Shown piece after piece: positions 24,092 through 55,261 of a DNA stretch of 64,000 nucleotides. The notes under the pieces were generated by a model. It was not told where the DNA came from. It made no database searches and worked only from the letters and a program-made list of their open reading frames with translations. The stretch is from an uncultured Caenibius sp. (GTDB lineage: Bacteria; Pseudomonadota; Alphaproteobacteria; Sphingomonadales; Sphingomonadaceae): NCBI GenBank assembly GCA_964468045.1, contig CAYXTO010000013.1, positions 21,392 to 85,391 of the forward strand. The letters run 5' to 3'. The number at the start of each line of letters is the position of its first letter. Positions within the stretch are counted from its first letter, which is position 1. Made by a program: the position numbers and the translations under genes.

Positions 24092-24131
24092 CCGCATCAC
24101 CCAGCATTCCAGACTTTCAGGGACCGATAGA

Positions 24132-36830: not shown

Positions 36831-36834
36831 CGGC

Positions 36835-38205: not shown

Positions 38206-38208
38206 GGG

Positions 38209-40254: not shown

Positions 40255-41304
40255 CTACTTCGCCATGGCGTGATCATGCATCAGCACGACACGACCGGTG
40301 ATTTCTTTCGCTTCCATCGCCCGGTGGGCCTCGGCGGCTTCGCTGACCGGCATGACGCGCCCGATCTCCGGCGTGATCTTCCCATCTGCCACGATCTGGA
40401 TGATCTTGCGCAGATCGTTGAGCGTCGCGTGGGCGCTGCCGATGAATTCCAGTTCCTTGAGGATCGAAAGCGCGGGATTGAACGGCCAGTTGCCCGGCTC
40501 CATCGTGCCTACGATGACCATGCGACCACCGGCCCGGATCGAGCGCACGCTCGACGGAAAGGTCGCGGCGCCGGCGATCTCGAGCACGCCATCAACGCCG
40601 ATGCCATCGGTCCAGTCGCGCAGTTCCTTGTGGAAGCCGCCCTCGCCCGCGACCACCACATGATCCGCGCCCGCATCCTTCAATTGCCGGGCCTTCGCCG
40701 GCGAAGTGGTCGCGGCGACCACGCGCAACCCGCCCAGCGCAGCCAGGCGAACCGCGTGGATGCCCACGCCCCCGGAAGCGCCGGTGATCAGCACCGTGCT
40801 GCCGATCGGCAGGGCCGCCCGGCGCAGCGCATGATAGCCCGTGCCGATCGCACAGCTCAGGACGGGCGCCACGTCCAGCGGGATTTCCTCGGGCAGATGC
40901 AGCGTATTGCGCTCCGAAGCGATGACATATTCGCCATAGCCGCCCGAGATCTGCTCGCCATAGAATCCGGCGCCGGAAACGCAGATGTTCTCCTGCCCGT
41001 TGCGGCAGGGAATGCAGGTGCCGCAACCGATCCGCTGGATCATCGCGACCCGGTCGCCGACCTTGAACCTGGTGATCAGCGATCCGACCTCGACCACTTC
41101 CCCGGCCACCTCATGCCCCATCACGCAGGGCAGCTGGGTGGTCGAGAAATGACCGGCGCGATTGAGCAGGTCGTGCCCGCACACGCCGCAGCCGGCGACG
41201 CGCACCAGCATCTGGTCCGCGGTGATTTCCGGAACCGGCACTTCCACCTGGTGCAGGACGGAAGGAGCGCCGAATTCGGAAAGCTGGATCGCCTTCATCT
41301 TCAT
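40255..41304 (-). CDS. Zinc-binding MDR-family dehydrogenase/reductase
   Basis: CGVCGHD, GHEVAGEVVEVG, structural-zinc loop CGTCIPCRNGQENIC, cofactor motif ITGASGGVGIHAV. Confidence 0.85.
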   Translation of the reverse strand: MKMKAIQLSEFGAPSVLHQVEVPVPEITADQMLVRVAGCGVCGHDLLNRAGHFSTTQLPCVMGHEVAGEVVEVGSLITRFKVGDRVAMIQRIGCGTCIPCRNGQENICVSGAGFYGEQISGGYGEYVIASERNTLHLPEEIPLDVAPVLSCAIGTGYHALRRAALPIGSTVLITGASGGVGIHAVRLAALGGLRVVAATTSPAKARQLKDAGADHVVVAGEGGFHKELRDWTDGIGVDGVLEIAGAATFPSSVRSIRAGGRMVIVGTMEPGNWPFNPALSILKELEFIGSAHATLNDLRKIIQIVADGKITPEIGRVMPVSEAAEAHRAMEAKEITGRVVLMHDHAMAK

Positions 41305-41310
41305 CCGGCG

Positions 41311-42432
41311 TTACCCCGCCGCCAGCAAAGCGACGGTGCCCGCCAGCACGCGTTCCTGATGATACTCGGTCGAACCGTAGAGCGTGCCCAGCAGGCGGCC
41401 CCGGCGATAATGAAAATGCAGCGCCATTTCCCAGGTATAACCCATCCCGCCATGCAGCTGGATCGCCTCGCGCATCACATGCACTGCCATCCGGTTGGCC
41501 TTGGACTTGGCCATCGACACAGCACGCTCCCGCTCATCCACATCGGCCGAAGCCATCGCCCAGGATGCATAGTAGGCGCCGGAACGGGCCGTGTTCAGAT
41601 CGACCGCCATGTCGGCGCAGCGATGCTTGATCGCCTGGAACGCACCGATCGGCTGGCCGAACTGCACGCGTTCCTTCACATAGCCGAGGGTGACGTCGAG
41701 CAGCCTACCGCCGATGCCGACCATGCCGAGCGAAGCGATCGTCGCCAGCAGATCGATCACATAAGCGGCATTCGCCGCACTGGCGGCGCCCAGAATGTCT
41801 TCCCTGGCGATCGCGACATTGTCGAAGCCGATGCTGTAGTAATCGCCGCTGATATCCAGCGCTTCCTCGCGGGAGATGGACACCCCATCGCGGTTGCGGT
41901 CGATCGCCAGCAGAATCGGTTCGCCAGCGACGTCCTTGGCGATCACCAGCAGCAGATCGGCGCGATCGGCGCCCGCCACCAGCAGCTTCCTGCCATTGAG
42001 GCGGTTGTCGGCAGTAAGCGCCGAGGCGAAACCCTCAGCCGCATAGCCGCCATCCTTCTCATAGACCGCGAACGCCACGCGAAGGCCGCCCGTGGAAAGG
42101 TCTTCCAGCCACTTCGCCTTCTGCGCATCATCGCCGAACCGGGCGATGACCAGGCTGGCCGCGATGGTGTCGGTCACCGTCAGGGGAACCAGCGCGGCGC
42201 CGAATTCCTCGGCGATCAGGGCCAGATCGACCGTGGTCAGGCCAAGGCCGCCCTGCTCTTCGGGAACCAGCAGGCCGAACAGGCCCAGCTCGGCCAGCTT
42301 CGGCCACAGCTCCGCCTCAAGCGCCACCGGATCGCCACCGTCGCGCAGGAGGTCGATCGGATATTCGGCGGAGAGGCTCTCACGAACCGTCTCCTGGAAC
42401 ATGTATTGTTCTTCGTTGAAGTCGAAATTCAT
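41311..42432 (-). CDS. Acyl-CoA dehydrogenase family protein, second member of an adjacent pair (beta-like subunit)
   Basis: Start moved to MNFDFNEEQYMF (ATG 42430-42432), 7 nt after the stop of the upstream ACAD. Overall ACAD fold pattern, but more divergent than its partner. Confidence 0.8.
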   Translation of the reverse strand: MNFDFNEEQYMFQETVRESLSAEYPIDLLRDGGDPVALEAELWPKLAELGLFGLLVPEEQGGLGLTTVDLALIAEEFGAALVPLTVTDTIAASLVIARFGDDAQKAKWLEDLSTGGLRVAFAVYEKDGGYAAEGFASALTADNRLNGRKLLVAGADRADLLLVIAKDVAGEPILLAIDRNRDGVSISREEALDISGDYYSIGFDNVAIAREDILGAASAANAAYVIDLLATIASLGMVGIGGRLLDVTLGYVKERVQFGQPIGAFQAIKHRCADMAVDLNTARSGAYYASWAMASADVDERERAVSMAKSKANRMAVHVMREAIQLHGGMGYTWEMALHFHYRRGRLLGTLYGSTEYHQERVLAGTVALLAAG

Positions 42433-42439
42433 GGCGGGC

Positions 42440-43630
42440 CTACTTCGGCAGGCCGAGCACGCGCTCGGCGATGATATTGCGCTGGATCTCGGATGTGCCG
42501 GAATAGATCGTGAAGGCACGGCTCTGCAGGCAGCTCATCGGGAAACGCCCCCGCGCCAGTGCATCCTCATCACCCTGCATCAGCAGCGCTTCCGGACCGA
42601 GAATCTCGATCGACATGTCGAACATGTCCTGCGCCACATGGCTCCAGTAGAGCTTCATCATGGAGCTTTCCGGGCCGGGCTTCTCGCCCTTGATCGCCTT
42701 GCTGAACTCGCGCAGGCAATTCATCCGCATCAGCTCGAGATCGACGATGGATTGGGCCAGGCGCTGACGAATGGCGGGATTATCGATCGCCTTCCCCTCA
42801 CCAAGCTCGACCTCGCCGGCGGTTTCGATCAGCAGATCGAGCTCCTGCTTGAAGCGGATCTGCCGGGCAAGCGCATCTTCCGCGCCGCGTTCGTAGGACA
42901 GCGTGGTCATCGCGATGCGCCAGCCATCGTTCAGTTCGCCAACGAGATTTTCCTTCGGAACGCGAACATTCTCGAAGAAGGTTTCGTTGAATTCCTTCTC
43001 CCCCGAAATCTGGGTGAGCGGGCGGATGGTGATTCCCGGCGTGCTCATGTCGACCAGGAAGAAGCTCAGCCCCTTGTGCTTCGGGGCGTTCTGATCGGTC
43101 CGCGCCAGCAGGATGCACCATTGGGAATACTGGGCGAAGCTGGTCCAGATCTTCTGCCCGTTGATGACGAATTCATCGCCGTCGAGATCAGCGCGGCAAC
43201 GGGAGGACGCCAGGTCCGACCCGGCATTCGGCTCGGAGAAGCCCTGGCACCAGATTTCCTCGGCAGCGAGGATCTTGGGAAGGTAGCGTTCGCGCTGCGC
43301 TTCCGACCCGTGGTGCATCAGCGTGGTGGCCGCAAGGTTGCGGCCGATGACATTGATGCCTTCCGGGGCCTGTGCGCGGGCCAGTTCTTCCGCGAAGATG
43401 CCCTGTTCGACCAAGGTCGCGCCACGGCCGCCATATTTCTGGGGCCAGCTGATGCCACTCCACCCGCCTTCATAGAGCTTGCGCTCCCAGTCGATCCGGA
43501 AATGGGCGCGCTCATCCTCGTCTTCCGGTTCGAAGATGGTCTTGCCCCAGCCTTTCGGCAAGGCATCGACCAGCCACGCACGCACCTCGCTGCGGAAACG
43601 CTGTTCTTCTTCCGAGTAATTGAAATCCAT
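42440..43630 (-). CDS. Acyl-CoA dehydrogenase, first member of the pair (alpha-like subunit)
   Basis: WPQKYGGRGATLVEQ, CQGFSEPNAGSDLAS, INGQKIWTSFA, and C-terminal IYSGTSEIQRNIIAERVLGLPK resemble the FadE26/FadE28-type steroid/bulky-substrate ACADs. Confidence 0.9.
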   Translation of the reverse strand: MDFNYSEEEQRFRSEVRAWLVDALPKGWGKTIFEPEDEDERAHFRIDWERKLYEGGWSGISWPQKYGGRGATLVEQGIFAEELARAQAPEGINVIGRNLAATTLMHHGSEAQRERYLPKILAAEEIWCQGFSEPNAGSDLASSRCRADLDGDEFVINGQKIWTSFAQYSQWCILLARTDQNAPKHKGLSFFLVDMSTPGITIRPLTQISGEKEFNETFFENVRVPKENLVGELNDGWRIAMTTLSYERGAEDALARQIRFKQELDLLIETAGEVELGEGKAIDNPAIRQRLAQSIVDLELMRMNCLREFSKAIKGEKPGPESSMMKLYWSHVAQDMFDMSIEILGPEALLMQGDEDALARGRFPMSCLQSRAFTIYSGTSEIQRNIIAERVLGLPK

Positions 43631-43639: not shown

Positions 43640-44425
43640 CTATTCCTTTCCGAATTCCGGGGCGCGCTTTTCACGGAAGGCGGCAACGCCTTCGGCATGG
43701 TCAGGCGTGGTGTAGGCCAGCGTCTGCGCATAGCCTTCGTATTCGAGCATCTGATCGAGCGTGGAATCCGCCGACTTGTTCAGCAGCGTCTTGATCATGG
43801 CCAGCGCGACCGGCGGGCCGGCGGCGATTTCCTTCGCGATCTTCCCGGCTTCGGCCAGCAGATCGTCATGCGGGACGACATGGTTCACAATGCCGAGATC
43901 GTAGGCTTCCTGCGCGCTGATCTTCTTGGCGGTGAAGCACAGTTCCTTCGCCTTGTTCACACCAACGATGCGGGTGAGGAAGTAAAGCCCGCCGAGATCC
44001 GGCACCAGACCCATCTTGGTGAAGATCTGGCTGTACATGGCCTTGTCGCTGGAAACGATGAAATCGCACGCCAGCGCGATGTTGAAGCCCGCGCCGACGG
44101 CCACGCCGTTCACGGCTGCGATCACCGGCTTTTCCAGGTCGAATAGCGGACGCAGCACATTGCGCAGGATGCCGCGATGGCGCGCGCGACGGGCCAGCAG
44201 CTTCATGTTCGGGTCCATGCCGCGGACATCGGCGCCGGCGCAGAAACCACGGCCCGCACCCGTCAAGATGACGCAACGCACTTCCGGATTGGCGGCGATC
44301 TCGCCAATCAGGTAATTCAGTTCCTTGTACATCTGGTCATTGGTGCTGTTCAGCGCGTCAGGGCGGTTCAGCGTGATCGTCGCTACACGCTCGTCCAGCT
44401 CATAGGTGATCGTTTCGAAATCCAA
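43640..44425 (-). CDS. Enoyl-CoA hydratase (crotonase)
   Basis: No in-frame ATG near the conserved N-terminus. TTG at 44423-44425 is preceded by AGGAG 8 nt upstream, giving (M)DFETITYELDERVATITLNRPDALN. FCAGADV, AAVNGVAVGAGFNIALACD, EGVAAFREKRAPEF. Confidence 0.85.
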   Translation of the reverse strand: MDFETITYELDERVATITLNRPDALNSTNDQMYKELNYLIGEIAANPEVRCVILTGAGRGFCAGADVRGMDPNMKLLARRARHRGILRNVLRPLFDLEKPVIAAVNGVAVGAGFNIALACDFIVSSDKAMYSQIFTKMGLVPDLGGLYFLTRIVGVNKAKELCFTAKKISAQEAYDLGIVNHVVPHDDLLAEAGKIAKEIAAGPPVALAMIKTLLNKSADSTLDQMLEYEGYAQTLAYTTPDHAEGVAAFREKRAPEFGKE

Positions 44426-44468
44426 GGTCTCAACTCCTAGGCAACCTGCGCAAGAATGCAGGCAATGA

Positions 44469-45302
44469 TCAGAATGCGATTGCGTCAGACTGCTGCGGCG
44501 GCACGAACGCGATATCCCCTTCGGTCGAATCCGGAATCGCCCACCAGTCCTCAGGCATATGCGTCGGAATGCGGAAATCATGCGCGGGCACGACGATATC
44601 GGCATGGTCCATCACGCGCTGCATCGCCGCCGCCCAGTCACGCTCGCTTTCAGAGCGGATGGGGCCCGGCAGGAATGTGTCGGCAAGATAGCGGGTCGGC
44701 CTGTCCGTGGCCCGCGGATCGGCGGGATACCAATATTTGTAATGGTCCCCCAGATCAGACACGAGCGCGACCTTGCCCTTGGCCGTGGTCACGATCGGAA
44801 CCTGCATGCCCGGCGTATGGGAAGGAACATGCAGGACGTGGATGCCATCCACGAAATCGAAATCGCCCTCGACCAGGCGCAGACCCTTGGGGCGCTTGCG
44901 GCTCAGAAGCTCGGCCATGATGTGGCCCTTGAAGAAAGGCCGCTGGCTCGGCGTCGGATCGATCGCGTGGAACAGTTCCTCGCGCTGCACCACGACGCAG
45001 GCATTGGGAAACAGGTCGGTGTTGTCGGCATGGTCGAAATGCATGTGGGTCAGGATGACATGGCTGATATCGTCCGGGGTCAGCCCATGTTCGGCAAGGC
45101 GTGCGCGCAAGGCCGCGTGGCCGCCGCCCCAGCCGCTCACCTTCAGCATCTCCTCGATCCGGGCGATATCGGTCATCCCGCTATCGACCAGGAAATGCTG
45201 CTTGCCGTCGGTCACGAGCCAGACGTGAATGGGGTCGCGATGGATCTTCCCGCCTTGCGGCAGATAGAGTTCACCAATCCTGAGCGAATGAACCTCGAAC
45301 AT
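44469..45302 (-). CDS. MBL-fold metallo-hydrolase (lactonase-like)
   Basis: H-x-H-x-D-H motif THMHFDHADN. 277 aa. Pattern resembles N-acyl-homoserine-lactonase-type MBL proteins. Confidence 0.85.
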   Translation of the reverse strand: MFEVHSLRIGELYLPQGGKIHRDPIHVWLVTDGKQHFLVDSGMTDIARIEEMLKVSGWGGGHAALRARLAEHGLTPDDISHVILTHMHFDHADNTDLFPNACVVVQREELFHAIDPTPSQRPFFKGHIMAELLSRKRPKGLRLVEGDFDFVDGIHVLHVPSHTPGMQVPIVTTAKGKVALVSDLGDHYKYWYPADPRATDRPTRYLADTFLPGPIRSESERDWAAAMQRVMDHADIVVPAHDFRIPTHMPEDWWAIPDSTEGDIAFVPPQQSDAIAF

Positions 45303-45321
45303 CCCAACTTACCCGATTATT

Positions 45322-45349
45322 GCCCCGCGCCTGTTTCCGGGCGCGGGGC
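45322..45349 (-). other. 10-bp GC-rich hairpin inside the operon (between the DUF35 gene and the MBL gene)
   Basis: GCCCCGCGCC (45322-45331), 8-nt loop, GGCGCGGGGC (45340-45349). No clear U-tract on the transcribed (minus) strand. Confidence 0.4.
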
Positions 45350-45357
45350 ATTTGCAT

Positions 45358-46287
45358 TTACTCGTCGATGACCTCGAACCGCTCGATGTCCGACACGCTG
45401 CCCTTGCGCTCGCCTTGCGTCCAGATCGCGCGGACACGGGTGCCCGGCTTGATCTTCTGCTTGGCGCTTTCAAGGTCCTCGATATCGATCATGTGGATCA
45501 TGCGGGTGGAAGCTCCATCGAGAACGATCTCGGCATAGACATAGGGCACCTGCCGGGTCTGGCCAAAGACTTCCATGTTGATGATCGAACATGCGCGGAT
45601 CGTGCCGGTGTTGGCGCACGCCTTCCAGGTGCCGGTGCGCTTATGCGTCACGTCGTCGACCTCGCGCGGCGGCAGCAGCGCATCGTCGCCATTCGAGGTG
45701 CGCACGCCCATCACCCGTCCATGCTCGCGGATCTCGTCGAACATGCGGCCGTAATAGGGGCCGTAGGCATGCTCGTAGTCGAGAGTCATGGAATAGTCGA
45801 TGACGCCAAGCGGTTCGGCTGGATCGGTCAGATCCTTGACCGCGCCGGCCGGCGCGTCGGCCGATGGGACGAAGCCGGCGATCGCCAGGATGGACGTGCC
45901 CTGGTCATCATCGCTCCATTTCGCCGCGACGCGCTGGCCGACCGACAAATCGCCCAGATCGGCAAGGATCTTGTGCGGGAATTCGTTGTCGCAGCCATCA
46001 AGGCGGATCAGGCCGATGACCTCGCCGTTCACGCGGGTGAAGGCGGTGAGAACACCGGTTTCCGGAACCTGGACCAGCGCCACGGGCTCGTCGCCGTTGA
46101 CGGGCGAAAAGTCCTGCGCGGGGGCAACCACCTTGCCATCGGGGAACTTCGAGCCGACGATGCGGCGGTTCGGCATTTCCGCGAGGAACGTTCCGGCCGC
46201 TCGGCCAGGAGTCAGCGTGTAAGGCATGCTGATCTGGCTGTGGAAGGTCGGAAGATCGAGCGGGTAAGCTTCTGGTGCGGAGTACAT
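45358..46287 (-). CDS. Tandem DUF35-type OB-fold protein (two OB-fold modules, no zinc-ribbon cysteines)
   Basis: 309 aa. Two repeats of the DUF35 C-terminal OB pattern (GVLTAFTRV...IGLIRLDG...VGQRVAAKW and GTIRACSIIN...YVYAEIVLDG...PGTRVRAIW). Confidence 0.8.
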   Translation of the reverse strand: MYSAPEAYPLDLPTFHSQISMPYTLTPGRAAGTFLAEMPNRRIVGSKFPDGKVVAPAQDFSPVNGDEPVALVQVPETGVLTAFTRVNGEVIGLIRLDGCDNEFPHKILADLGDLSVGQRVAAKWSDDDQGTSILAIAGFVPSADAPAGAVKDLTDPAEPLGVIDYSMTLDYEHAYGPYYGRMFDEIREHGRVMGVRTSNGDDALLPPREVDDVTHKRTGTWKACANTGTIRACSIINMEVFGQTRQVPYVYAEIVLDGASTRMIHMIDIEDLESAKQKIKPGTRVRAIWTQGERKGSVSDIERFEVIDE

Positions 46288-46299
46288 CTGTCGTTCTCC

Positions 46300-47451
46300 T
46301 TAAGCGCTCAGCACGGCACAGCCGCGCAGGTTGGCCCAGCCGCCGCCCGACTGGACGAGTGCGGTCTTGGCGCCTTTGATCTGGTGGCTCTCGTTGCGGC
46401 CCATGACCTGGGTCGCCCCTTCGATCAGCCGGATAACGCCGACCGCGCCGATCGGATTGGCGCCCATGCAGCCTCCCGAGGGATTGACCGGAATATCGCC
46501 ATCGAGCTGGGTGGCGCCGGAAGCGATCAGCTCAGCCGCCTGGCCCGGAGGGCACAGACCAAGGCTTTCGTAATAGTTGAGCTCGAAGCAGCTATAGGGC
46601 TCCTGCACCTCGACCACGTCGAACTGGCGACGCGGATTGGTGATGCCGGCGGCGCGATAGACGCGCTTCGAAGCGATTGCGAGCGGTTCCGACAGCATCA
46701 GCGAGCGTTCCGGGGCATTGTCCGCTTCGCAGCAATAGGCAATGCCGCGAATCCATGCCGGCGTGGTGGTCGAATGGTGCGCCACCTTCTCGTTGGCGAG
46801 AACGATGGCAGCCGCGCCGTCCGAGATCGGCGGCACGTCGAGCAGCTTGATCGGCCAGCACAACGGCCGGGAATTGAGCACGTCCTCGACGGTCACTTCC
46901 TTCTTCACATGCGCATAGGGATTGGCGATCGCGTTCTTGCGATTCTTGGCCGCAACCATCGCCGCGGCTTCTTCCGTATGGCCCAGCACCTCCATGCGCG
47001 CCCGCCAGTAAGCGGCGGAAAAGCCCATGATGCCGACCGCGAACTCACGACCCCAGAACGGATCGTAAAGCGTCGAGATCGAGTACTGAAGCTGGCCTTC
47101 GGACAGCTTGTCGTACGCGACCACGAGCGTGCGCTCCGAATAGCCGCCCGCGACCTGGTAATAGCCGGCAAGAGCGCCGGCAAAGCCTGCGCCGCCGCCG
47201 CTGGTGAGGCGCACGACCGACTTGCCCTGCGCGCCGATCGCATCGACTACCCACTTTTCCGGCTGGTTCACCGCAGCGAACAGCACGGGGCCGGTAGCGA
47301 CGACCACCGTGTCGATCTCATCCATCGACAGCTTCGCGTCAGCCAATGCACGATCCACCGCCTCGCGGACGAGACCAGCCTGGCTGACATCGGTCCGACG
47401 GCGTGCGTGATGCGTCTGTCCGACGCCTACAATTCCTACTTCACGGCCCAT
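46300..47451 (-). CDS. Thiolase-fold (SCP-x/Ltp-like) protein with an incomplete catalytic set
   Basis: ATG at 47449-47451 (TTG alternative at 47457). The expected nucleophile loop reads VRLTSGGGAGFAGAL with no Cys. The C-terminal GGCMGANPIGAVG has Asn where canonical thiolases have His. Confidence 0.85.
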   Translation of the reverse strand: MGREVGIVGVGQTHHARRRTDVSQAGLVREAVDRALADAKLSMDEIDTVVVATGPVLFAAVNQPEKWVVDAIGAQGKSVVRLTSGGGAGFAGALAGYYQVAGGYSERTLVVAYDKLSEGQLQYSISTLYDPFWGREFAVGIMGFSAAYWRARMEVLGHTEEAAAMVAAKNRKNAIANPYAHVKKEVTVEDVLNSRPLCWPIKLLDVPPISDGAAAIVLANEKVAHHSTTTPAWIRGIAYCCEADNAPERSLMLSEPLAIASKRVYRAAGITNPRRQFDVVEVQEPYSCFELNYYESLGLCPPGQAAELIASGATQLDGDIPVNPSGGCMGANPIGAVGVIRLIEGATQVMGRNESHQIKGAKTALVQSGGGWANLRGCAVLSA

Positions 47452-47453
47452 GA

Positions 47454-48560
47454 TCAAACCTCGAGAGTAAAGACGCAGTTGGTCTGCATCGCGACACCGC
47501 CGGTGCCGTGGACGACAGCGCGGCTCGGCGCGGCTGCGCCGGACTGGGGTTGCAAAAGCTGGCCGGACGCAGCCGCCAGACGCGCAAGACCCGTAGCCAG
47601 CACCGGATCGGCCGGCAAAGCGCCGCCCGAACGGTTGACCTTGTCGGACAGCGCCGCATCGAGACCCTTGCCTGCCTTGGCGACGCCGATGCCTTCCAGC
47701 GCCAGCAGCTCGCCAACGACCGAGCTGCCGCTGACCTCGACCACATCCGCTTCGGCCGCATTCCAGCCGGCCTTGGCCGATGCCATCGCGGCCGCGCTGG
47801 CGACCGAATCAAGCTTGCCGGCGCCACGTGCGGCAAAGGAATGGGTATCCATCGAAGTGCCCATGCCGGTGATGAAGACGGGCGGACGACCCAGCCGGCG
47901 AGCGATCTCTTCGGTGCTGAGGAGAATTGCGACAGCGCCGTCCACCGGGCGCGAGATCATCAGCTCTGTCAGCGGCGCGGCCCCTTCGCCCGATGCCAGC
48001 ACGGCATCGACGTCGGGCACGCTGTCGATCGCGACCTGACCGCCTTCGGCGGCCGCGGCCCAGCGCTTCGCCACGACATCGGCGAGATCGCGATCCTTGA
48101 CGCCGCTGGCATCGAGGTAACGCTGCGCCTGGATGCCGAGGGCAACACGCTGATTGAAACCGACGGGCCGCTGGTAGAACGGCTCCACCATGGACGACCA
48201 GTACAGGCTGATGTCGGATTCCGAAGGCTTGGAATAGGCCACGATCAGGCCGATGGACGAACCCGCGCGGAGCTTGTTCACGCCATAGAGCGCGCCCCAC
48301 AGCCCGTCCTCCTCGACACGCGCCTCTTCCTTGTGATGGGCGCCGAGCGCACCAAGGAAGCCGCAGTTCGAGATCGAACGGCCATCGAGCACGTCACTGC
48401 CGGAGTCGATGATGAAATCGACATCGTCCAGCGTCAGGCCCGTGCCCTTGAACACATCCGTAACGACTGCGGAAATGAGGTCGATATGCTGGGCGCTATC
48501 CCATGCGGGACGCAGCTGGGTCATCGACGTCGAAATAATGCCAACGCGAGGCATGCTCAT
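47454..48560 (-). CDS. Thiolase-fold (SCP-x/Ltp-like) protein, degenerate partner
   Basis: 368 aa. The C-terminal loop reads NRSGGALPADPVLATG and lacks both the Cys and the His of the canonical CxGHP motif. RBS AGGGGGG upstream. Confidence 0.8.
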   Translation of the reverse strand: MSMPRVGIISTSMTQLRPAWDSAQHIDLISAVVTDVFKGTGLTLDDVDFIIDSGSDVLDGRSISNCGFLGALGAHHKEEARVEEDGLWGALYGVNKLRAGSSIGLIVAYSKPSESDISLYWSSMVEPFYQRPVGFNQRVALGIQAQRYLDASGVKDRDLADVVAKRWAAAAEGGQVAIDSVPDVDAVLASGEGAAPLTELMISRPVDGAVAILLSTEEIARRLGRPPVFITGMGTSMDTHSFAARGAGKLDSVASAAAMASAKAGWNAAEADVVEVSGSSVVGELLALEGIGVAKAGKGLDAALSDKVNRSGGALPADPVLATGLARLAAASGQLLQPQSGAAAPSRAVVHGTGGVAMQTNCVFTLEV

Positions 48561-48800: not shown

Positions 48801-49601
48801 TCAGACATCGCTAAACTTTGGAGAACGGCCCTGCAGGAATGCGGCAACACCTTCCTGGCTATCGCGAGTGGCCACCAAATCAGCGGACAGCGACTGCGCA
48901 TCCAGATAGGCTTCCATCCAGCTCATGCCCTCGAGTCGCGACGAGGCGATCTTGCGGGCCTGGATCGAAGGCAGGCTCTTGGCCGCTATCGCCTCCGCCA
49001 GCTGCAGCGCCTTGGGCAACACCTCTTCACGGGGCACGACGTAATTGAAGAAGCCTGTCGGCTCCAATTCACGCGCCGTGTATTTCTGGCCGGTGAAGAG
49101 GATCTCCCGCATCTTCGCTTCGGGCATCTTGAGCATCGAGAACAGGCCGGCGCCTCCGCAGACCAACCCATAGTCGATCTCAGGGCACGAGAACTTCGCA
49201 TCCTCCCACGCGATCCGCATGTCGCACAGCCCGGACAGGATCATGCCTATGCCGATGGCCGGCCCATTCACGGCGGCGATGACCGGCCGATCCAGATAAT
49301 AGAAGGAAGGGAGCTTTTCATTGATGTAGCGATAGCGCTCCTTGCGCTTCGCGGTGTCCATCCCGACGAAGTCGTTGAGGTCCGCTCCGCCGCACCACGC
49401 GCGCGCCTCCTCCGGGGCGGTCAGAATCAGCACCCTGATCGCCGGATCCCCGGCCACGCGTTCGCTCAGGTCGCCGATATTCTCGTAAACCGACAAGGAT
49501 ACCGCATTCACCGGCGGCCGGCTGAAGGTCGCCAGGCCGACTCCGGAAGCCAGCAGATCGAGGCGCAAGGCGCCGAATTCTTCTGTCCTGACTATATCCA
49601 T
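48801..49601 (-). CDS. Enoyl-CoA hydratase/isomerase (crotonase) family protein
   Basis: Start at MDIVRTEEFG (ATG 49599-49601) with GGGGAGA upstream. WCGGADL, AAVNGPAIGIGMILSGLCD, EGVAAFLQGRSPKF. Confidence 0.85.
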   Translation of the reverse strand: MDIVRTEEFGALRLDLLASGVGLATFSRPPVNAVSLSVYENIGDLSERVAGDPAIRVLILTAPEEARAWCGGADLNDFVGMDTAKRKERYRYINEKLPSFYYLDRPVIAAVNGPAIGIGMILSGLCDMRIAWEDAKFSCPEIDYGLVCGGAGLFSMLKMPEAKMREILFTGQKYTARELEPTGFFNYVVPREEVLPKALQLAEAIAAKSLPSIQARKIASSRLEGMSWMEAYLDAQSLSADLVATRDSQEGVAAFLQGRSPKFSDV

Positions 49602-49740
49602 CTTCTCCCCGCATCGAAAACGCAATTTCCCGGCTGCCGTAACTGCACGTCCGGGACGGGTAAAGCCGAAAGACTTTTTGATTCGGTTTGACCTGTCTTG
49701 CCTCTCTTTCTACACCCAAGAGCGGAGGGAGAAGAATAAA

Positions 49741-52140
49741 ATGGCGAAGCTCGCATCACGGTCTCTTGCAACCATACTGCTCATCATCGGCCTGATGGTC
49801 GGATTGGGCGGAGCCTGGCTCATCGTGCTGGGGGGCTCGCCCTATTATCTTCTCGGCGGCATGGCCGTGGCGCTGTCCGGGTTCTGGCTGTGGCGCTCCA
49901 ACTCCCGCGCCGGCTGGCTCTATGCGGCCTTCCTGATCGTCACCGCCTTGTGGGCGCTGTGGGAAGTCGGCCTCGATGGCTGGCAGCTGACCGCACGCAT
50001 CATCGGTCCGGCCCTGTTCGGTCTGTTCTTCGCGCTGCCCGGTGTGAGGAAGCAGATCGGCAAGAGCGGATGGGCCGCTGCCGCTGCCGGCCTGCTGGGT
50101 TTCCTGGTGGTGTTCGGCGCGGCCCTGCGCTCCCCGATGGAAGTGGCCGCGGACAAGGCACCCCAGGTGCGCACGGCGCAGACGCTCGGTAACGACAACG
50201 AATGGAGCGCCTGGGCCCGCGACAATGCCGGATCGCATTTCTCCCCCCTGAGCCAGATCACCCCGGCCAATGTCGACAAGCTCGAACTCGCCTGGGAATT
50301 CGACACCGGCTACGACCCGATGACCGATGCCGCGCCCAGTCCGCTCCAGGCGACTCCGCTGATGGTGGATGGCCGGCTTTACCTCTGCACGCAGACCAAC
50401 GTCGTCTTCGCGCTCGATCCGGAAACCGGCAAGGAACTCTGGCGCTTCGATCCCAAGGTCGACCCGACCGGCGGCACCGCCGTGCGTACCTGCCGCGGCG
50501 TGACCTATTATGAAAGCCAGGCAACGGCGCCCGCCCAAGGTGCTGGTGCTGCTGGTACGGCGCCTGCCGCCGTGCCCTTCTGTGCTCGCCGGATCATCAC
50601 CGGCACCTTCGGCGCGCAGCTGATCGCGCTCGACAGCGCCACCGGCAAGCCCTGCCCGGGCTTCGGCGAAAACGGCATCGTCGACCTCAAGGAAGGCATG
50701 GGCGAAGTGCTGCCGGGCTATTATCATATCTCTTCGGCCCCCACGATCGTGCGCGGTACGATCGTCGTTGGCGGCTGGGTGGCCGATAATCTGAGCGCCA
50801 ATCAGCCGTCCGGCGTCATCCGCGGCTTCGATGCGGAAACCGGCCGGCTGCGCTGGGCATGGGACGCCGGCAATCCGGCCAACCGGAACGGCCCGCCGCC
50901 GGGACAATGGTATACCCGCTCGACTCCCAACAGCTGGGCCCCGATGAGCGCGGACGAGGAACTGGGCCTCGTCTATGTGCCTACCGGCAATCCCGCGCCG
51001 GACTATTTCGGCGGCTACAGGTCGCAGGCGAGCGAGACGTACGGCAGCGCGGTCGTCGCGCTGGATGCGCAGACGGGGGAGCCGAAATGGCATTTCCAGA
51101 CCGCGCACCATGATCTTTGGGATTATGACGTCGCATCCCAGCCCACGCTGTTCAACTTCCCCGGCAAGAACGGGCCGATCCCGGCCCTGGCCCAGGCGAC
51201 CAAGCGCGGCGAATTGTTCGTGCTGGATCGCCGGACCGGCACACCGCTGACCCAGGTCGTCGAGAAGCCTGCGCCGCAAAGAGGCAAGGTGCCGGACGAT
51301 CGCCTCTCCCCGACCCAGCCGTTCTCCACCGGGATGCCCAGCTTCGCCGGGGATCGCCTGACCGAAAAGGACATGTGGGGCATCACTCCGATCGACCAGC
51401 TGTTCTGCCGGATCTGGTTCAAGCGGCTGCGGTATGACGGGCCGGTGACTCCTCCGGGGCTGGACGAGGCGATCGTCTATCCCAGCATCGGCGGCGGCAT
51501 GAACTGGGGCGGCGTGGCGTTCGATCCGGATCGCCGGATCATGATCATCAATTCACTCTATTATGCAACGCTGCTGTCGCTTATTCCGCGGGTAGAAGCC
51601 GACCGGCAGATCGAAGCGGCAGGCAAGGCGGGCGACAGCCACGATCTGGCGCTGGCCGCCGCACCGCTGCCGATGGCCGGGACGCCCTATGGCGCTCGGG
51701 TGCGGGGTTTCACGACACCGCTCAACACGCTGTGCCACGCGCCGCCCTATGGCCGGATGACGGCGGTCGACATGGATACGCAGAAGATCCTCTGGCAACG
51801 TCCGGTAGGCACCGTCCAGGATAGCGGCCCGCTCGGCCTCAAGGTCGGCCTGCCGATCCGCATGGGCATGCCGGGCTTCGGCGGATCTCTGGTTACACGC
51901 AGCGGCCTGACGTTCTTCGGCGCCCAGAAGGAGCAAGCCTTCCGCGCCTTCGACACCGCGACCGGAAAGGAACTCTGGTCCACCCGGATGCCGGCATCCG
52001 GCAATGCGAATCCGATGACCTATAGCGGCCCCAGGAGCGGGCGCCAGTTCGTCGTGATTGCCGCCAGCGGTCACGTCACCTCCCAATCCTTGCCTCTGGG
52101 CCGGACTTTCCGCGCTTATGCCCTTCCGGAGAAAAAATGA
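49741..52140 (+). CDS. Membrane-bound PQQ-dependent dehydrogenase (glucose/quinate/shikimate dehydrogenase family)
   Basis: ATG at 49741 after GGAGGGAGAAG. The N-terminal 5-TM anchor (GGSPYYLLGGMAVALSGFWLW...LWALWEVGLDGWQL) is typical of Gcd/QuiA. It is followed by the PQQ beta-propeller (repeated W-motifs, DLWDYD). Confidence 0.9.
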   Translation: MAKLASRSLATILLIIGLMVGLGGAWLIVLGGSPYYLLGGMAVALSGFWLWRSNSRAGWLYAAFLIVTALWALWEVGLDGWQLTARIIGPALFGLFFALPGVRKQIGKSGWAAAAAGLLGFLVVFGAALRSPMEVAADKAPQVRTAQTLGNDNEWSAWARDNAGSHFSPLSQITPANVDKLELAWEFDTGYDPMTDAAPSPLQATPLMVDGRLYLCTQTNVVFALDPETGKELWRFDPKVDPTGGTAVRTCRGVTYYESQATAPAQGAGAAGTAPAAVPFCARRIITGTFGAQLIALDSATGKPCPGFGENGIVDLKEGMGEVLPGYYHISSAPTIVRGTIVVGGWVADNLSANQPSGVIRGFDAETGRLRWAWDAGNPANRNGPPPGQWYTRSTPNSWAPMSADEELGLVYVPTGNPAPDYFGGYRSQASETYGSAVVALDAQTGEPKWHFQTAHHDLWDYDVASQPTLFNFPGKNGPIPALAQATKRGELFVLDRRTGTPLTQVVEKPAPQRGKVPDDRLSPTQPFSTGMPSFAGDRLTEKDMWGITPIDQLFCRIWFKRLRYDGPVTPPGLDEAIVYPSIGGGMNWGGVAFDPDRRIMIINSLYYATLLSLIPRVEADRQIEAAGKAGDSHDLALAAAPLPMAGTPYGARVRGFTTPLNTLCHAPPYGRMTAVDMDTQKILWQRPVGTVQDSGPLGLKVGLPIRMGMPGFGGSLVTRSGLTFFGAQKEQAFRAFDTATGKELWSTRMPASGNANPMTYSGPRSGRQFVVIAASGHVTSQSLPLGRTFRAYALPEKK

Positions 52141-52625
52141 TGGCCAGCCTTGCAGTCAGCCCGTTCAGCCCGCCCGAACTGCTCGAGAAAGCGAGCAGTG
52201 ACGATGCGCGGGAGTGGGTTCCAGCGGCCATGGACGGCGTGTGGATGCGTCCTTTGCTGTTCGATACCGTTGCTGGCGCATGGGTGAATGTCACGCGGCT
52301 GGAACGGGAAGGCTTCATCAGCCGCCATGCGCATCCCTGCCCGGTCCACGCCTATGTGCTGTCCGGCCAATGGCGCTATGCGGAAAGGGACTGGATCGCA
52401 ACCGCAGGCAGCTACCTGCTCGAACCGCCGGGCGACATCCACACGCTGATGGGATTACCAGGCGGGTCGGAAACGCTTTTCTGGATTGGCGGAACGTTGG
52501 TCGAACTCGACGAAAACGGCAATACGACCGGCTATGCCGATGTGTTCACCCGCATCGAACAGGCTGCAAAGCACTTCGAAAAGGTCGGGCTTGGCCGCGA
52601 TTACGTGAAGCGTTTCATTCGCTGA
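52137..52625 (+). CDS. Cupin, 2,4'-dihydroxyacetophenone dioxygenase (DAD)-like family
   Basis: ATGA overlap with the PQQ dehydrogenase gene. RHAHPCPVHAYVLSGQWRYAERDWIATAGSYLLEPPGDIHTL is the His-rich cupin pattern I associate with DAD-family proteins. Confidence 0.75.
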   Translation: MMASLAVSPFSPPELLEKASSDDAREWVPAAMDGVWMRPLLFDTVAGAWVNVTRLEREGFISRHAHPCPVHAYVLSGQWRYAERDWIATAGSYLLEPPGDIHTLMGLPGGSETLFWIGGTLVELDENGNTTGYADVFTRIEQAAKHFEKVGLGRDYVKRFIR

Positions 52626-52647
52626 CGTCGAACCGGTTTGGTCCAGG

Positions 52648-52682
52648 AAAAAAGCCGCGCCCGTCAGGACGCGGCTTTTTTT
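52648..52682. terminator. Bidirectional rho-independent terminator
   Basis: AAAAAAGCCGCG (52648-52659) pairs with CGCGGCTTTTTT (52670-52681), flanked by an A-tract and a T-tract. Lies between the convergent cupin and BVMO genes. Confidence 0.7.
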
Positions 52683-52700
52683 ATTTCACTTCCCGGGTTT

Positions 52701-54359
52701 TCAGGCGTCGACCAAGGCCCCCTGACGCATCACGAAGCCTTCGTAACCGTTGGCTTTCACCTCCGCCACCTTCGCGCGGTAGGCGGGATTGCCGCCATTA
52801 TACACCAGCAGGCGATGGCCCCGCTTAGCGCCTTCGCCGAACTCGCCCCAGAACCAGCTGTTGGTGGCGGTGGTGAGCAAGGTCTGGTTGGCGACATCAT
52901 AGACATGCTGCGTCCATTCCTCCGCGGCGCTCTCTTCCGTTTCGATCCGTTCCACCCCATTGTCCTTCATGTACTGGAACAGGTCCGCGACCCATTCCAC
53001 CTGGGCTTCGGAACAGCGCGGGATATTGCAGAACGTGGCACCGTTGTGCGCACCGACCAATGTGAAGAGATTCGGAAATTCGGGAATCTGGAGGCCAAGA
53101 TAGGTGAAGGGGCCGTTGAACCAGGCTTCCTTCATCGTTTTTCCACCGATCCCGCGAATATCCATCTGCTTGATGCCGCCGATGATGGCATCGAAGCCGG
53201 TGGCATAGATGATCATGTCGAGATCGTACTTGGCATGCTCCGTTTCGATGCCTTCGGGCGTCATGCGCTGGATCGGATCTTCGTGAATATCCACCAGATG
53301 GACGTTCGGCTGGTTGTAGGCCTCGTAATACTTGGTTTCCATCGGCACGCGCTTCAGGCCGAAGCCGTGGTCCTTGGGAATCAGCTTTTCCGCGACCTTC
53401 GGATCCTTCACCCGCTCGCGAATCTTCTTGGCGATGAAATCGGTGATGTAGCCATTCACCTTGGGATCGGTGAACATGTCCGCATAATGGCCGACCCAGA
53501 TGGCGTAGCCTGACTGGTTGTAAAGCTCTTCGAACAGAGCCTCACGCTCCTCATGCGTCGTACCTTCGGCCGTTTCGTACATGAAATCGTGCTGGAAGCC
53601 GGAATTGGTGTTTCCGCACTTCTCGAAGATCTTCGGATAGTTCGCCTTGATCTCGGCCATGCGCTCCGGCTCGATCGGCTTGTCGCACAGCGGCGCGCAC
53701 CAATTGGGATGGCGCTGAAAGACATAGAGCTCGCCGGCCGTCTTGGCCACTTCCTGGATGACCTGAACCCCGGTTGCGCCGGTGCCGATCACACCCACGC
53801 GCTTGCCCGCGAAATCGACCTTCTGCCCGCCATAGCCATCGCGCTCATGCGGCCAGTAATAGGTGTGATAGGTCTCGCCCCGGAACAGGTCCATGCCCGG
53901 ATAGTTGGGCATATTCGGATGAGAGAGCGCCCCGACGCAAGTCAGCAGGAAGCGGGACTTGTACACCTCCGCATTGTCCAGCTCGACCGACCAGCTGTTT
54001 TCCTCATTGTTGAAGATGGCCTTCTTGATCTGCGTATTGAACGTGATGTCCTTGCGCACATCCATCTTGTCCGCCGCCTTGCTGAAGAACTCGTTGAGTT
54101 CCGGCTGGGTGGCGAATTCGGTCTTCCAGTCCCATTCCTGCAGCAGCTCGGGCAGGAACGAATAGGGATAGGTGTAGGATTCCGAATCCAGCTTGCAGCC
54201 CGGATAGCGGTTCATCGTCCAGGTGCCGCCCACATCCCCGTTCTTCTCGAACGCATGGACTGAATAGCCCATCTTCCGCAGACGATAGAGCGTATACATC
54301 CCGGTGATGCCAGCACCGATGATGATGACATCGAAATCCAGATCAGACCTTTGTGCCAT
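52701..54359 (-). CDS. Type I Baeyer-Villiger monooxygenase (FAD/NADPH, cyclohexanone-monooxygenase-like)
   Basis: GAGITG FAD motif, GGTW, BVMO fingerprint FRGETYHTYYWP (FxGxxxHxxxWP), second Rossmann motif GTGATG. 552 aa. Confidence 0.92.
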   Translation of the reverse strand: MAQRSDLDFDVIIIGAGITGMYTLYRLRKMGYSVHAFEKNGDVGGTWTMNRYPGCKLDSESYTYPYSFLPELLQEWDWKTEFATQPELNEFFSKAADKMDVRKDITFNTQIKKAIFNNEENSWSVELDNAEVYKSRFLLTCVGALSHPNMPNYPGMDLFRGETYHTYYWPHERDGYGGQKVDFAGKRVGVIGTGATGVQVIQEVAKTAGELYVFQRHPNWCAPLCDKPIEPERMAEIKANYPKIFEKCGNTNSGFQHDFMYETAEGTTHEEREALFEELYNQSGYAIWVGHYADMFTDPKVNGYITDFIAKKIRERVKDPKVAEKLIPKDHGFGLKRVPMETKYYEAYNQPNVHLVDIHEDPIQRMTPEGIETEHAKYDLDMIIYATGFDAIIGGIKQMDIRGIGGKTMKEAWFNGPFTYLGLQIPEFPNLFTLVGAHNGATFCNIPRCSEAQVEWVADLFQYMKDNGVERIETEESAAEEWTQHVYDVANQTLLTTATNSWFWGEFGEGAKRGHRLLVYNGGNPAYRAKVAEVKANGYEGFVMRQGALVDA

Positions 54360-54413
54360 AAGGCATCTCCCAATTCAGCAGCTGTGCCGATTCCGGCTAA
54401 GCTCCGGGATATT

Positions 54414-54476
54414 CTAGCGCCTTGACCTTGATCAAGAAAGCGAATCTTTCTCGGCTTTTGATCAAGGCCTCGCTAG
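54414..54476. repeat. Nested inverted-repeat element containing two TTGATCAA palindromes
   Basis: CTAGCG (54414-54419) / CGCTAG (54471-54476). CCTTGATCAA (54426-54435) / TTGATCAAGG (54458-54467). GAAAG / CTTTC around 54436-54450. Lies between the EthD stop and the BVMO start. Confidence 0.5.
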
Positions 54477-55261
54477 AGCGCCCACTCGCGCTCAACGTAG
54501 GGATACTCCTTCCCGGAAAACAGGAACGACTGCCCCAGCTCTATGAAATTGCGCTCGTCCTGAGCCGCCGTCAACCTGGCCTGTTCCACATCGGCGCCGC
54601 CGGGAACACGCGAGCGGTCGAACCACGCCTCGGCATGCCCGATAAACCGCCCCACTCCGAAGCCGAGCGCCGACGCGACCTGCCCGGTCAGCGGATAATC
54701 GCGGCGATGGACCTGATAATAGCAGGTGGTGCCCCGCGCGACGGCATGGGAGCGGACCAGCGGGCCATGCTCGGTCAGCCAATAGCTTTGGGCCTCGGCA
54801 TCGGTCATGCCGGCGCGCGGCATCAGCGGAAAGGCGAGCTTCAGCAGCGGCGTGCGCGGCCGCGCGGCGACACGCCCGGGAGCGGAGGAAACCTGCGGAA
54901 ATTCGTGCGCCAGCCAGCACAGCGATCCGGCCGCGTCGATAATTCCCTCGCCCGCCTGGCGGACCAGAGCGAGCGCAGAAGCGCCCCCAGAAGAGCCACA
55001 GAGCGACTCAAGCGCATCATGGGATGGCCACCAGAAGTCCGCCATCGCCTCGAACGGGCTGATCAGGCTGCCGCGCAACTCCGTTGCGATGCGATCGCCT
55101 TCCGCTGCATCGGGGTCGGCATGGAACTGGACGTAGCGGATCAGCCCGAGCTTCGCCTGCAAGCCCGCGACGGCGGGCCCGACCACATCCCGTAAGCCGG
55201 CGAAGAACGCCTCGGGAGCCAGCGCCGCATCGCGTTTCAGAAGACAGACCAGCCTTATCAT
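54473..55261 (-). CDS. Tandem EthD-domain protein (two dimeric alpha/beta-barrel modules)
   Basis: MIRLVCLLKRDAALAPEAFFAGL... and a second module LLKLAFPLMPRAGMTDAEAQSYWLTEHGPLV... both fit the EthD N-terminal pattern (beta-strand, K/R-R, helix with F/Y-W). Confidence 0.75.
   Translation of the reverse strand: MIRLVCLLKRDAALAPEAFFAGLRDVVGPAVAGLQAKLGLIRYVQFHADPDAAEGDRIATELRGSLISPFEAMADFWWPSHDALESLCGSSGGASALALVRQAGEGIIDAAGSLCWLAHEFPQVSSAPGRVAARPRTPLLKLAFPLMPRAGMTDAEAQSYWLTEHGPLVRSHAVARGTTCYYQVHRRDYPLTGQVASALGFGVGRFIGHAEAWFDRSRVPGGADVEQARLTAAQDERNFIELGQSFLFSGKEYPYVEREWAL

Follow-up and report, generated by a model that had tools for sequence, protein, structure and literature searches.

Paired thiolase-fold proteins without thiolase residues and a tandem DUF35 protein in a Caenibius catabolic operon: a candidate non-thiolytic C-C lyase

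What can a pair of thiolase-fold proteins do once the residues that make a thiolase have gone from both? The question is raised by three adjoining genes at 45358-48560 of a 64,000-nucleotide stretch of DNA from an uncultured Caenibius sp. (GenBank assembly GCA_964468045.1, contig CAYXTO010000013.1, positions 21,392 to 85,391 of the forward strand), which was analysed as a whole and is called the window here. Two of the genes encode divergent thiolase-fold proteins, LtpA and LtpB, and the third a protein with two DUF35 modules; together they are referred to as the trio. We propose that their products form a heteromeric, non-thiolytic C-C lyase for a branch-bearing acyl-CoA, a reading to which we give an even chance of being right. 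The three genes are:

47454-48560, minus strand: LtpA-like thiolase-fold subunit, 368 aa from an ATG, Pfam Thiolase_C_1
46300-47451, minus strand: LtpB-like thiolase-fold subunit, 383 aa from an ATG, distantly Ltp3-like
45358-46287, minus strand: tandem DUF35 protein with two OB-fold modules, 309 aa, PF01796 at residues 221-289

The GC content at third codon positions (0.78-0.81), together with hundreds of homologues found down to E = 1e-200, identifies all three as real genes. The LtpA stop codon occupies 47454-47456 and LtpB opens with the ATG at 47451, in agreement with the 2-nt gap reported in a preliminary description of this DNA that had been made from the sequence alone. The same ATG start is used in gene calls on an identical metagenome contig, and homologues open with MGRxVG; an exact-sequence look-up of the 385-aa version of this open reading frame (ORF) with a TTG start came back empty, and the ATG is taken as the true start. 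Since the identical proteins are known from only one further short contig (a 7.6-kb Logan contig), genomic context was taken from homologues. Scanning one genome per species yielded 58 loci of the trio clade, about 45 of them in Sphingomonadales, and neighbourhoods were read from a tblastn matrix and annotated example loci; an all-against-all clustering of their ORFs was not used, as it was confounded by antisense ORFs in high-GC DNA.

The residues of LtpB were mapped by HMMER alignment to a solved SCP2 thiolase (6hsj) and by a MAFFT alignment of 52 homologues. Compared with 6hsj, the nucleophile loop NNNC(S)TG reads TSGGGAG in LtpB, with Gly86 in place of the Cys; HDCF has become QEPY (Q283-E284-P285-Y286), and GHP has become A331-N332-P333, with Asn332 in place of the His. 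The nucleophile loop is missing altogether from LtpA (VEED--GLW), which has SGSS at the HDCF position and ADP at the GHP position. The preliminary description had singled out the same features, namely one protein without the N-terminal Cys and with a GGCMGANP loop, and another without Cys and His in its C-terminal loop (GGALPADP); the former agrees with Gly86 and Asn332 of LtpB and the latter with the motifs of LtpA, while the wording CxGHP that it used points to the right residues and fuses two separate thiolase motifs into one. The alignment with an SCP2 thiolase, which that description had suggested as a check, finds an intact Cys-His-Cys set in neither protein, and the description is not refuted on this point. 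The loss is specific to the LtpA/LtpB pair, because a second thiolase in the window (14558-15760), which has a DUF35 partner of its own and served as a control, retains the Cys, HDCF and GHP. To judge from their sequences, neither LtpA nor LtpB can run the Cys-His-Cys thiolase mechanism, and with this machinery missing from both protomers acyl-enzyme thiolysis is excluded.

It could still be argued that the pair is an ordinary 3-ketoacyl-CoA thiolase that works through a relocated cysteine, either Cys288 of LtpB or Cys66 or Cys362 of LtpA, all of which are invariant in the homologue alignments. Yet LtpB has a Gly at the nucleophilic elbow and LtpA has lost the elbow by deletion, neither protein keeps the GHP His, and the part of SCP2 thiolase that corresponds to Cys66 is a non-catalytic Cys region; moreover, an intact SCP2-type thiolase is encoded elsewhere in the window, and a classical thiolase lies beside the trio in locus L062. 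We consider such a relocation very improbable.

As many as 163 of the 383 LtpB residues are invariant across 52 sequences from two phyla, and the invariant stretches include the former active-site loops TSGGG, QEPYxCFEL, GANPIGA and GGGWANLRG. Such conservation could reflect many protein-protein interfaces, and, with the canonical catalytic residues gone from both proteins, it is conceivable that LtpA and LtpB are dead scaffolds (pseudoenzymes) which, with the DUF35 protein, organise or channel the acyl-CoA dehydrogenase (ACAD), crotonase and carboxylase encoded alongside; DUF35 has itself been described as a “molecular staple” or channelling scaffold. Invariance that extends to the former active-site loops is, however, typical of a working active site, and we regard the scaffold explanation as improbable. 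In the lyase that we propose instead, catalysis would fall to LtpB, where the invariant E284, Y286, C288 and N332 are candidate residues, and LtpA would be a non-catalytic or auxiliary partner.

In the product of the third gene, Pfam sees only the C-terminal OB fold (PF01796, 43.6 bits against a cut-off of 27.1). The protein nevertheless has two DUF35 modules, because its N half matches its C half in a profile-profile comparison (hhalign, 99.5% probability, E = 3e-23, 131 columns). The zinc ribbons (PF12172 in the DUF35 family) of both modules lack their four Cys in the window protein and in every proteobacterial homologue, so that the two OB-fold modules without ribbon cysteines noted in the preliminary description are indeed there. 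The family alignment reveals a graded loss, with 4+4 Cys in Acrocarpospora (L056) and in L063, 0+4 (module 2 only) in L053, L054 and L059, which include Saccharomonospora and Sporichthya, and 0+0 in all Proteobacteria; this series offers a natural experiment on the need of DUF35 for zinc. The double DUF35 suits a pseudo-symmetric heterodimer in which each protomer has a module of its own. The three proteins would then probably combine as a pseudo-symmetric 1:1:1 unit, or as several such units, with each module clamping one thiolase-fold protomer as the single DUF35 does in Ltp2-ChsH2, Sal-Shy, BbsAB and the archaeal thiolase/HMG-CoA synthase complex. A phmmer search of PDB sequences with the DUF35 protein gave noise only. 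The best PDB matches found by Foldseek with its AlphaFold2 model are exclusively DUF35 chains of thiolase-fold complexes (6esq_F, 9myr_B, 7pxp_A, 6ok1_D); the model was built from a shallow 14-sequence alignment, and these matches count as weak support.

Thiolase-fold proteins that do not carry out thiolysis have precedents. Ltp2-ChsH2 and Sal-Shy (PDB 6ok1, 9myr) also have the SCP2-type fold without the nucleophilic Cys and need their DUF35 partner; they are steroid side-chain retro-aldolases that convert a 3-hydroxyacyl-CoA into a ketone or aldehyde and an acyl-CoA (PMC12329534). Both are homodimers, each flanked by a single zinc-containing DUF35 domain fused to a MaoC hydratase, whereas here the pair is proposed to be heteromeric and the DUF35 protein is free-standing, tandem and zinc-less; in phmmer LtpB reaches only E = 5e-19 against 6ok1_A of the Ltp2 complex. 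In composition, two thiolase-fold proteins plus DUF35, the trio resembles the archaeal acetoacetyl-CoA thiolase/HMG-CoA synthase/DUF35 complex (6esq) and PhlACB; PhlC is among the PDB matches of LtpB, no chain matches the DUF35 model better in structure than 6esq_F, and one source names a homologue “PhlB family protein”. The archaeal and Phl enzymes, however, have kept the catalytic Cys and are biosynthetic, while the window system is Cys-less and belongs to a catabolic operon. Two further systems were set aside, namely the bile-salt side-chain cluster of Sphingobium sp. Chol11, whose cluster 2 is reported to be without thiolase or aldolase homologues and is unrelated to the window operon, and the actinobacterial oestrogen cluster with aedK/aedL, an Ltp2/ChsH2-type pair of different architecture.

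The closest kinship is with Ltp3 and Ltp4. The best NCBIfam match of LtpB is PRK08313 (Ltp3; 353.5 bits, cut-off 514) and that of LtpA is PRK07937 (Ltp4; 155.6 bits, cut-off 419), and the Ltp3-Ltp4 (Rv3523/Rv3522) and Rv3521 system likewise consists of two adjoining genes for Cys-less thiolase-fold proteins and a gene for a tandem OB-fold protein of about 300 aa. That a DUF35-type gene neighbours ltp3 and ltp4 in M. tuberculosis had been stated in the preliminary description, and the literature does place Rv3521 beside ltp4, with a KstR operator within the Rv3520c/Rv3521 intergenic region and Rv3521 still labelled a hypothetical conserved protein in 2022. Among actinobacterial ltp3-ltp4 loci, tblastn located one on a Tsukamurella plasmid in which EchA19 stands together with a CoA ligase, a tandem OB-fold protein of 309 aa and two proteins with thiolase domains that exceed the PRK08313 and PRK07937 cut-offs (734 and 593), EchA19 also exceeding its equivalog cut-off; this is the Rv3521-ltp4-ltp3 arrangement. 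Both systems are accompanied by a CoA ligase, a crotonase and ChsE4-like ACADs, and Ltp3 and LtpB share an Asn where thiolases have the His of GHP. They differ in gene order (DUF35-Ltp4-Ltp3 as opposed to LtpA-LtpB-DUF35), in the nucleophile loop (HTAGSVGGS in Ltp3, TSGGGAG in LtpB) and in their surroundings, in that a carboxylase is linked to the window trio but not to the Ltp3/Ltp4-type loci L002 and L003, and the sterol context is not seen here. According to PMC6678751, which cites Wilbrink 2012, deletions of ltp3 and ltp4 stop the degradation of C24-branched sterol side chains, and PMC6678751 and PMC6593523 call Ltp3/Ltp4 a heteromeric aldol-lyase that acts after C28 carboxylation and hydration. 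The earlier statement that the function of this three-gene arrangement is uncharacterised thus holds for biochemistry and structure, which we did not find in the literature, and fails for genetics.

Could the trio simply be the true Ltp3/Ltp4/Rv3521 orthologue, which removes the ethyl or methyl branch at C24 of phytosterols with the linked carboxylase as the sought C28 carboxylase? The best family matches are to Ltp3 and Ltp4, the first of two ACADs in the operon (ACADa) is closest to ChsE4, the sterol side-chain ACAD that introduces the 24,25 double bond, both crotonases of the operon (ECH1 and ECH2) have EchA19 among their best matches, the published sterol pathway requires a carboxylase, a hydratase and an aldol-lyase, and the organism comes from activated sludge, which is rich in sterols. 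Nothing relevant to a sitosterol C28 carboxylase was found in the literature. The scores, however, lie far under the cut-offs, and identity to the Tsukamurella proteins is 26% for LtpA (Ltp4-type), 39% for LtpB (Ltp3-type) and 29% over full length for the DUF35 protein (Rv3521-type). Actinobacteria carry both clades, and there the same-clade LtpB is 73-76% identical to the window LtpB as compared with 38-40% for the Ltp3-type proteins of Mycobacteriales; the two clades are therefore paralogous rather than one family stretched by distance. Genes of the steroid-ring types KshA, KstD and HsaC were not found among the approximately 50 annotated genes of the window or in L062, and the regulators belong to the TetR and MarR types, without any indication of a KstR context. 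Orthology appears rather unlikely to us, and on these sequence comparisons the window trio is a separate clade and not a set of Ltp3/Ltp4 orthologues.

What, then, does the operon around the trio offer to a C-C lyase? The trio belongs to a series of 13 genes, all on one strand and extending from 49625 to 35367, which begins with ECH1 and, after LtpA, LtpB and the tandem DUF35 gene, continues through a metallo-beta-lactamase-fold (MBL) gene, ECH2, ACADa, ACADb, a medium-chain dehydrogenase/reductase (MDR) gene, the CoA ligase gene and the genes for a biotin carboxyl carrier protein (BCCP) and a biotin carboxylase to a carboxyltransferase gene:

48801-49601, minus strand: upstream crotonase ECH1, Pfam ECH_1
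44469-45302, minus strand: MBL-fold lactonase-like protein, Pfam Lactamase_B
43640-44437, minus strand: PaaG-like crotonase-fold protein ECH2, Pfam ECH_1
42440-43630, minus strand: ChsE4-like acyl-CoA dehydrogenase ACADa, Pfam ACAD domains
41311-42519, minus strand: ACADb, likely partner of ACADa, recognised by Pfam
40255-41304, minus strand: zinc-dependent MDR-family oxidoreductase, Pfam ADH_N and ADH_zinc_N
38777-40237, minus strand: acyl-CoA ligase, Pfam AMP-binding
38209-38718, minus strand: BCCP, Pfam Biotin_lipoyl
36835-38205, minus strand: biotin carboxylase, a typical AccC-like ORF translation
35367-36830, minus strand: divergent 5S/PycB-type carboxyltransferase with an altered metal site, Pfam PYC_OADA

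A promoter scan detected nothing, and terminator-like matches were not above the expectation from shuffled sequence. A perfect 10-bp GC-rich inverted repeat (GCCCCGCGCC ... GGCGCGGGGC) at 45321-45350, within the 55 nt that separate the DUF35 gene from the MBL gene, is unique within the window, has no T-run on the sense strand and may form an mRNA hairpin or serve as a processing site; in Sphingobium psychrophilum, unlike here, the two genes overlap by 4 nt. The sequence was detected in DNA from activated-sludge and bioreactor metagenomes, and no RNA-seq runs containing it were found.

ACADa, which is conserved in 47 loci, finds as its best PDB matches 4x28_A (ChsE4, E = 1.5e-55) and 6wy9_A, as opposed to 1e-38 for ordinary ACADs. 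The matches of ACADb include 6wy8_A, the partner chain of the heteromeric ACAD, and it is kept beside ACADa across loci, with an identity of only about 44%. Of the two crotonases, the preliminary description proposed that the upstream one, ECH1 (48801-49601), feeds the trio. ECH1, which is separated from LtpA by a 240-nt gap and retains only the second hydratase Glu, is a variable neighbour, adjacent to the trio only in the two nearest relatives (L004 and L006), with about eight other loci carrying it elsewhere in the neighbourhood; the conserved crotonase is the downstream one, ECH2 (43640-44437), which is retained beside the trio in Proteobacteria and Actinobacteria alike. ECH2 has the motifs GAGFNIALACD and GLVPDLGG, the latter like the GLxPDxG of PaaG, and its best PDB matches are 2ej5 and PaaG (4fzw_C). 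The longest ORF for it reaches 44605, within the MBL gene, and is probably overlong. The MBL gene itself follows the DUF35 gene in 44+5 of the 44+5 proteobacterial loci that cover that position, and its best NCBIfam matches (AiiA, AidB and 4-pyridoxolactonase) are all under their cut-offs. The MDR oxidoreductase, with orthologues in nine loci, matches PRK13771 and an acryloyl-CoA reductase-like family of NCBIfam, both under cut-off, whereas orthologues of the CoA ligase (68-85% identity) occur in ten loci, most other loci having a paralogous ligase elsewhere.

The carboxylase module (35367-38718) went unmentioned in the preliminary description. BCCP lies upstream of the carboxyltransferase in 33 proteobacterial loci, with one weak (37%) actinobacterial match in addition, and BCCP and a 5S-type carboxyltransferase are linked to the trio in 35 sphingomonad, one gammaproteobacterial and five actinobacterial loci. 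The biotin carboxylase is adjacent in the window, L004-L006, L048 and the actinobacterial loci, and lies further along in L009-L011, L014, L018 and L023. The carboxyltransferase shares its fold and domain order (HMGL-like TIM barrel and PYC_OADA) with PycB, OadA alpha and transcarboxylase 5S, in which the biotin carboxylase and BCCP are likewise encoded by separate genes; in contrast to these, it has an altered metal site and belongs to an acyl-CoA catabolic operon rather than to anaplerosis. Against NCBIfam PRK09282 it scores 327 bits, the cut-off being 402. The metal ligands D17/Kcx178/H207/H209 of OadA correspond to D13/Y176/H206/N208, so that two of the four are lost, and RDGHQS reads RDGQQS in 42 of 42 carboxyltransferase homologues; Tyr176 and Asn208 are kept in 37 proteobacterial homologues, whereas the actinobacterial ones have Glu and His. 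From these residues a pyruvate carboxylase seems unlikely, and the protein possibly represents a new carboxylase subfamily, whose linkage to the trio suggests a new substrate class for this carboxylase family. Two divergent 5S-type carboxyltransferases (13433-14899 and from about 19200 onward) flank a CoA ligase, a putative cyclase, a BCCP and a biotin carboxylase in L056 (Acrocarpospora catenulata).

Non-thiolytic C-C cleavage at a branched carbon is the reading that we prefer, since thiolysis is impossible, the functional data on relatives indicate aldol cleavage and the setting is beta-oxidation-like, and since a ChsE4-like ACADa and a carboxylase recur in the operon. The heteromeric non-thiolytic complex envisaged in the preliminary description is strengthened by the loss of thiolase residues and by the kinship with Ltp3/Ltp4; its lyase chemistry, like complex formation, the choice of catalytic subunit and the order of steps, is what we infer. 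In the sequence that we envisage, the ChsE4/ChsE5-like ACAD pair would carry out the alpha,beta-desaturation of a bulky or branched acyl-CoA, the PaaG-like ECH2 would isomerise or hydrate the product, and the trio would cleave the CoA thioester by a reaction of the retro-aldol or HMG-CoA-lyase type where the branch blocks ordinary beta-oxidation, with the CoA ligase and the lactonase-like MBL protein belonging to surrounding steps. The carboxylase could act at either of two points: it might carboxylate the branch of an enoyl-CoA before cleavage, as in the Atu/Liu pathway and the logic proposed for sitosterol C28, or it might carboxylate the ketone that is released afterwards. Our best guess at the substrate is a branched isoprenoid or terpenoid, alicyclic or sterol-side-chain-like acid.

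The Atu/Liu pathway bypasses a beta-branch with geranyl-CoA or methylcrotonyl-CoA carboxylase, a hydratase and an HMG-CoA-type lyase. The window operon shares this logic of a biotin carboxylase, a crotonase-fold enzyme and a C-C lyase, but with the folds swapped: there the carboxyltransferase is crotonase-like and the lyase an HMGL TIM barrel, while here an HMGL/5S-type TIM-barrel carboxyltransferase is combined with a putative thiolase-fold lyase.

Several observations weigh against this proposal. To our knowledge, 5S-type carboxyltransferases act only on 2-oxo acids and not on acyl-CoAs or ketones. The carboxylase is absent within 10 kb in four complete loci (L038, L046, L047 and L050) and is therefore not obligatory. 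The conserved core contains no clear hydratase, because ECH2 is isomerase-like in the manner of PaaG and, together with all its orthologues, lacks both hydratase Glu (the first is replaced by N, S or A and the second by Phe), both of which EchA19 has. The AlphaFold2 model of the DUF35 protein is poor, with a mean confidence score (pLDDT) of 57.9 and below 50 in the C-terminal module. For Ltp3/Ltp4 no enzymology or structure was found in the literature, and the Mycobacteriales Ltp3 reads YVPF where LtpB reads QEPY, so that the first Tyr is kept in Ltp3 and is Gln283 in LtpB. Finally, the residues of the proven thiolase-fold aldolases are Tyr294/Tyr344 (YDHF) in Ltp2 and Tyr302/Cys304 (YDCY) in Sal (PMC12329534), and LtpB has Gln283, Pro285 and Asn332 at these positions, which were mapped through the HDCF/GHP equivalence in the same paper and not by direct sequence alignment. 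The proven-aldolase motif is thus absent. A shifted alignment, in which Y286-x-C288 would correspond to Y302-x-C304 of Sal, was rejected, as the flanking strand and helix align without gaps. Because LtpB fails the Ltp2/Sal catalytic type, its chemistry cannot be read from its residues, and because it lacks the Tyr-based residues of the known aldolases, any such chemistry must use a different residue set.

The lack of any proven aldolase residue in LtpB may also be read to mean that the trio acts otherwise on a carboxylated intermediate, as a decarboxylase, hydrolase or isomerase, and that the C-C bond is cleaved by the PaaG-like crotonase or by the HMGL-like TIM barrel. Nucleophile-less thiolase-fold proteins are known as decarboxylases (KS-CLF, KS-DC), a biotin carboxylase is closely linked to the trio, the crotonase fold includes C-C hydrolases and retro-aldolases, and ECH2 matches the family “oxepin-CoA hydrolase, alternative type”. 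The four complete loci with a trio and no carboxylase speak against such a role, however, as do the sole functional data on relatives (Ltp3/4, Ltp2 and Sal), all of which indicate aldol cleavage. We consider this alternative doubtful, although it deserves more weight than any of those discussed above.

How widely, and in what company, does the trio occur? Among sphingomonads it is carried by Novosphingobium, Sphingobium, Sphingomonas, Caenibius and genera of the Erythrobacter group; other proteobacterial carriers are Chelatococcus, Enterovirga and metagenome-assembled genomes of a Rhodospirillaceae, a Porticoccaceae and a gammaproteobacterium, and the actinobacterial ones are Saccharomonospora, Sporichthya, Frankiales, Acrocarpospora and Acidimicrobiia. 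The order LtpA-LtpB-DUF35 is invariant in all of the 58 loci that cover these genes, with gaps of 2-12 nt. In Proteobacteria the trio is followed by MBL, ECH2, ACADa, ACADb and usually BCCP and the 5S-type carboxyltransferase, to which a typical sphingomonad locus adds a divergent set of amidohydrolase_2, CoA ligase, hydrolase, true thiolase, short-chain dehydrogenase/reductase (SDR) and SnoaL. In Actinobacteria the order is LtpA-LtpB-DUF35, an ECH2-type crotonase, a luciferase-like monooxygenase, carboxyltransferase and CoA ligase, with biotin carboxylase and EthD nearby. Median identity to the window proteins in sphingomonads, other Proteobacteria and Actinobacteria, respectively, is 93%, 81% and 74% for LtpB, whereas LtpA stands at 70% (sphingomonad median), 60% and 53%, and the DUF35 protein at 72% (sphingomonad median), 52% and 44%.

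Taken together, we tentatively suggest, as a possibility rather than a likelihood, that these loci represent a horizontally spread and undescribed branch-bypass module, in which a heterodimer with a new active site and a zinc-free double DUF35 would act on a tertiary 3-hydroxyacyl-CoA and a novel 5S-type biotin carboxylase on a ketone or acyl-CoA. If this were true, the same logic could reveal the carboxylase step in the degradation of branched sterol and isoprenoid side chains. The enzymology of non-thiolytic thiolase-fold proteins (Ltp2, Sal) is small and recent, and the heteromeric Ltp3/Ltp4 type has genetic support only; the present clade provides a tractable, highly conserved version from non-pathogens, in cultured Novosphingobium, Sphingobium and Chelatococcus. 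The carboxylase linkage also suggests that wastewater and soil bacteria share a general route by which acids with branches or alicyclic rings are degraded (terpenoids, naphthenic acids, sterol side chains).

The window as a whole is a large catabolic island with a pyrroloquinoline quinone (PQQ) alcohol dehydrogenase, a type I Baeyer-Villiger monooxygenase, EthD, a luciferase-like monooxygenase, an esterase, several CoA ligases, ACADs and crotonases, a beta-keto acid cleavage enzyme (BKACE), a CitE-like lyase and a TonB-dependent receptor. Divergent from the operon, the region 49678-55261 encodes the PQQ-dependent alcohol dehydrogenase (with an N-terminal extension of about 175 aa), a ChrR-type cupin, the type I Baeyer-Villiger/flavin-containing-monooxygenase-like protein and the EthD-domain protein, a set common only to the nearest relatives L004-L006; an EthD protein also adjoins the carboxyltransferase in the Saccharomonospora locus L053.

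The second DUF35/thiolase pair (14558-17184, minus strand) consists of the SCP2-type thiolase (14558-15760, 400 aa), in which Cys, HDCF and GHP are intact, and a 475-aa partner (15757-17184) that ends in an OB_ChsH2_C domain and has no Pfam match in its N-terminal part; the pair looks like a true thiolase system of the BbsAB or archaeal type; an HpcH/CitE-like lyase, an ACAD and an SDR follow (13220-14404, 11972-13150 and 11047-11961). Another small acyl-CoA module at 20960-25415 comprises a crotonase, an acetyl-CoA hydrolase/transferase-family protein, the BKACE (362 bits) and a 500-aa crotonase-domain protein. At 7244-9109 on the minus strand, a 621-aa fusion of a fatty-acid-desaturase/alkane-hydroxylase-like part with FAD_binding_6 and 2Fe-2S ferredoxin domains is a self-sufficient membrane oxygenase. 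The window further contains three paralogous DUF7064/DUF7065 proteins (2675-3658, 34289-35248 and 57043-58053), two APH-family phosphotransferases (55804-56997 and 61189-62691) and, in a 1.9-kb stretch, two overlapping long plus-strand ORFs with no Pfam match (9212-10462 and 10035-11066), which are putatively coding only.

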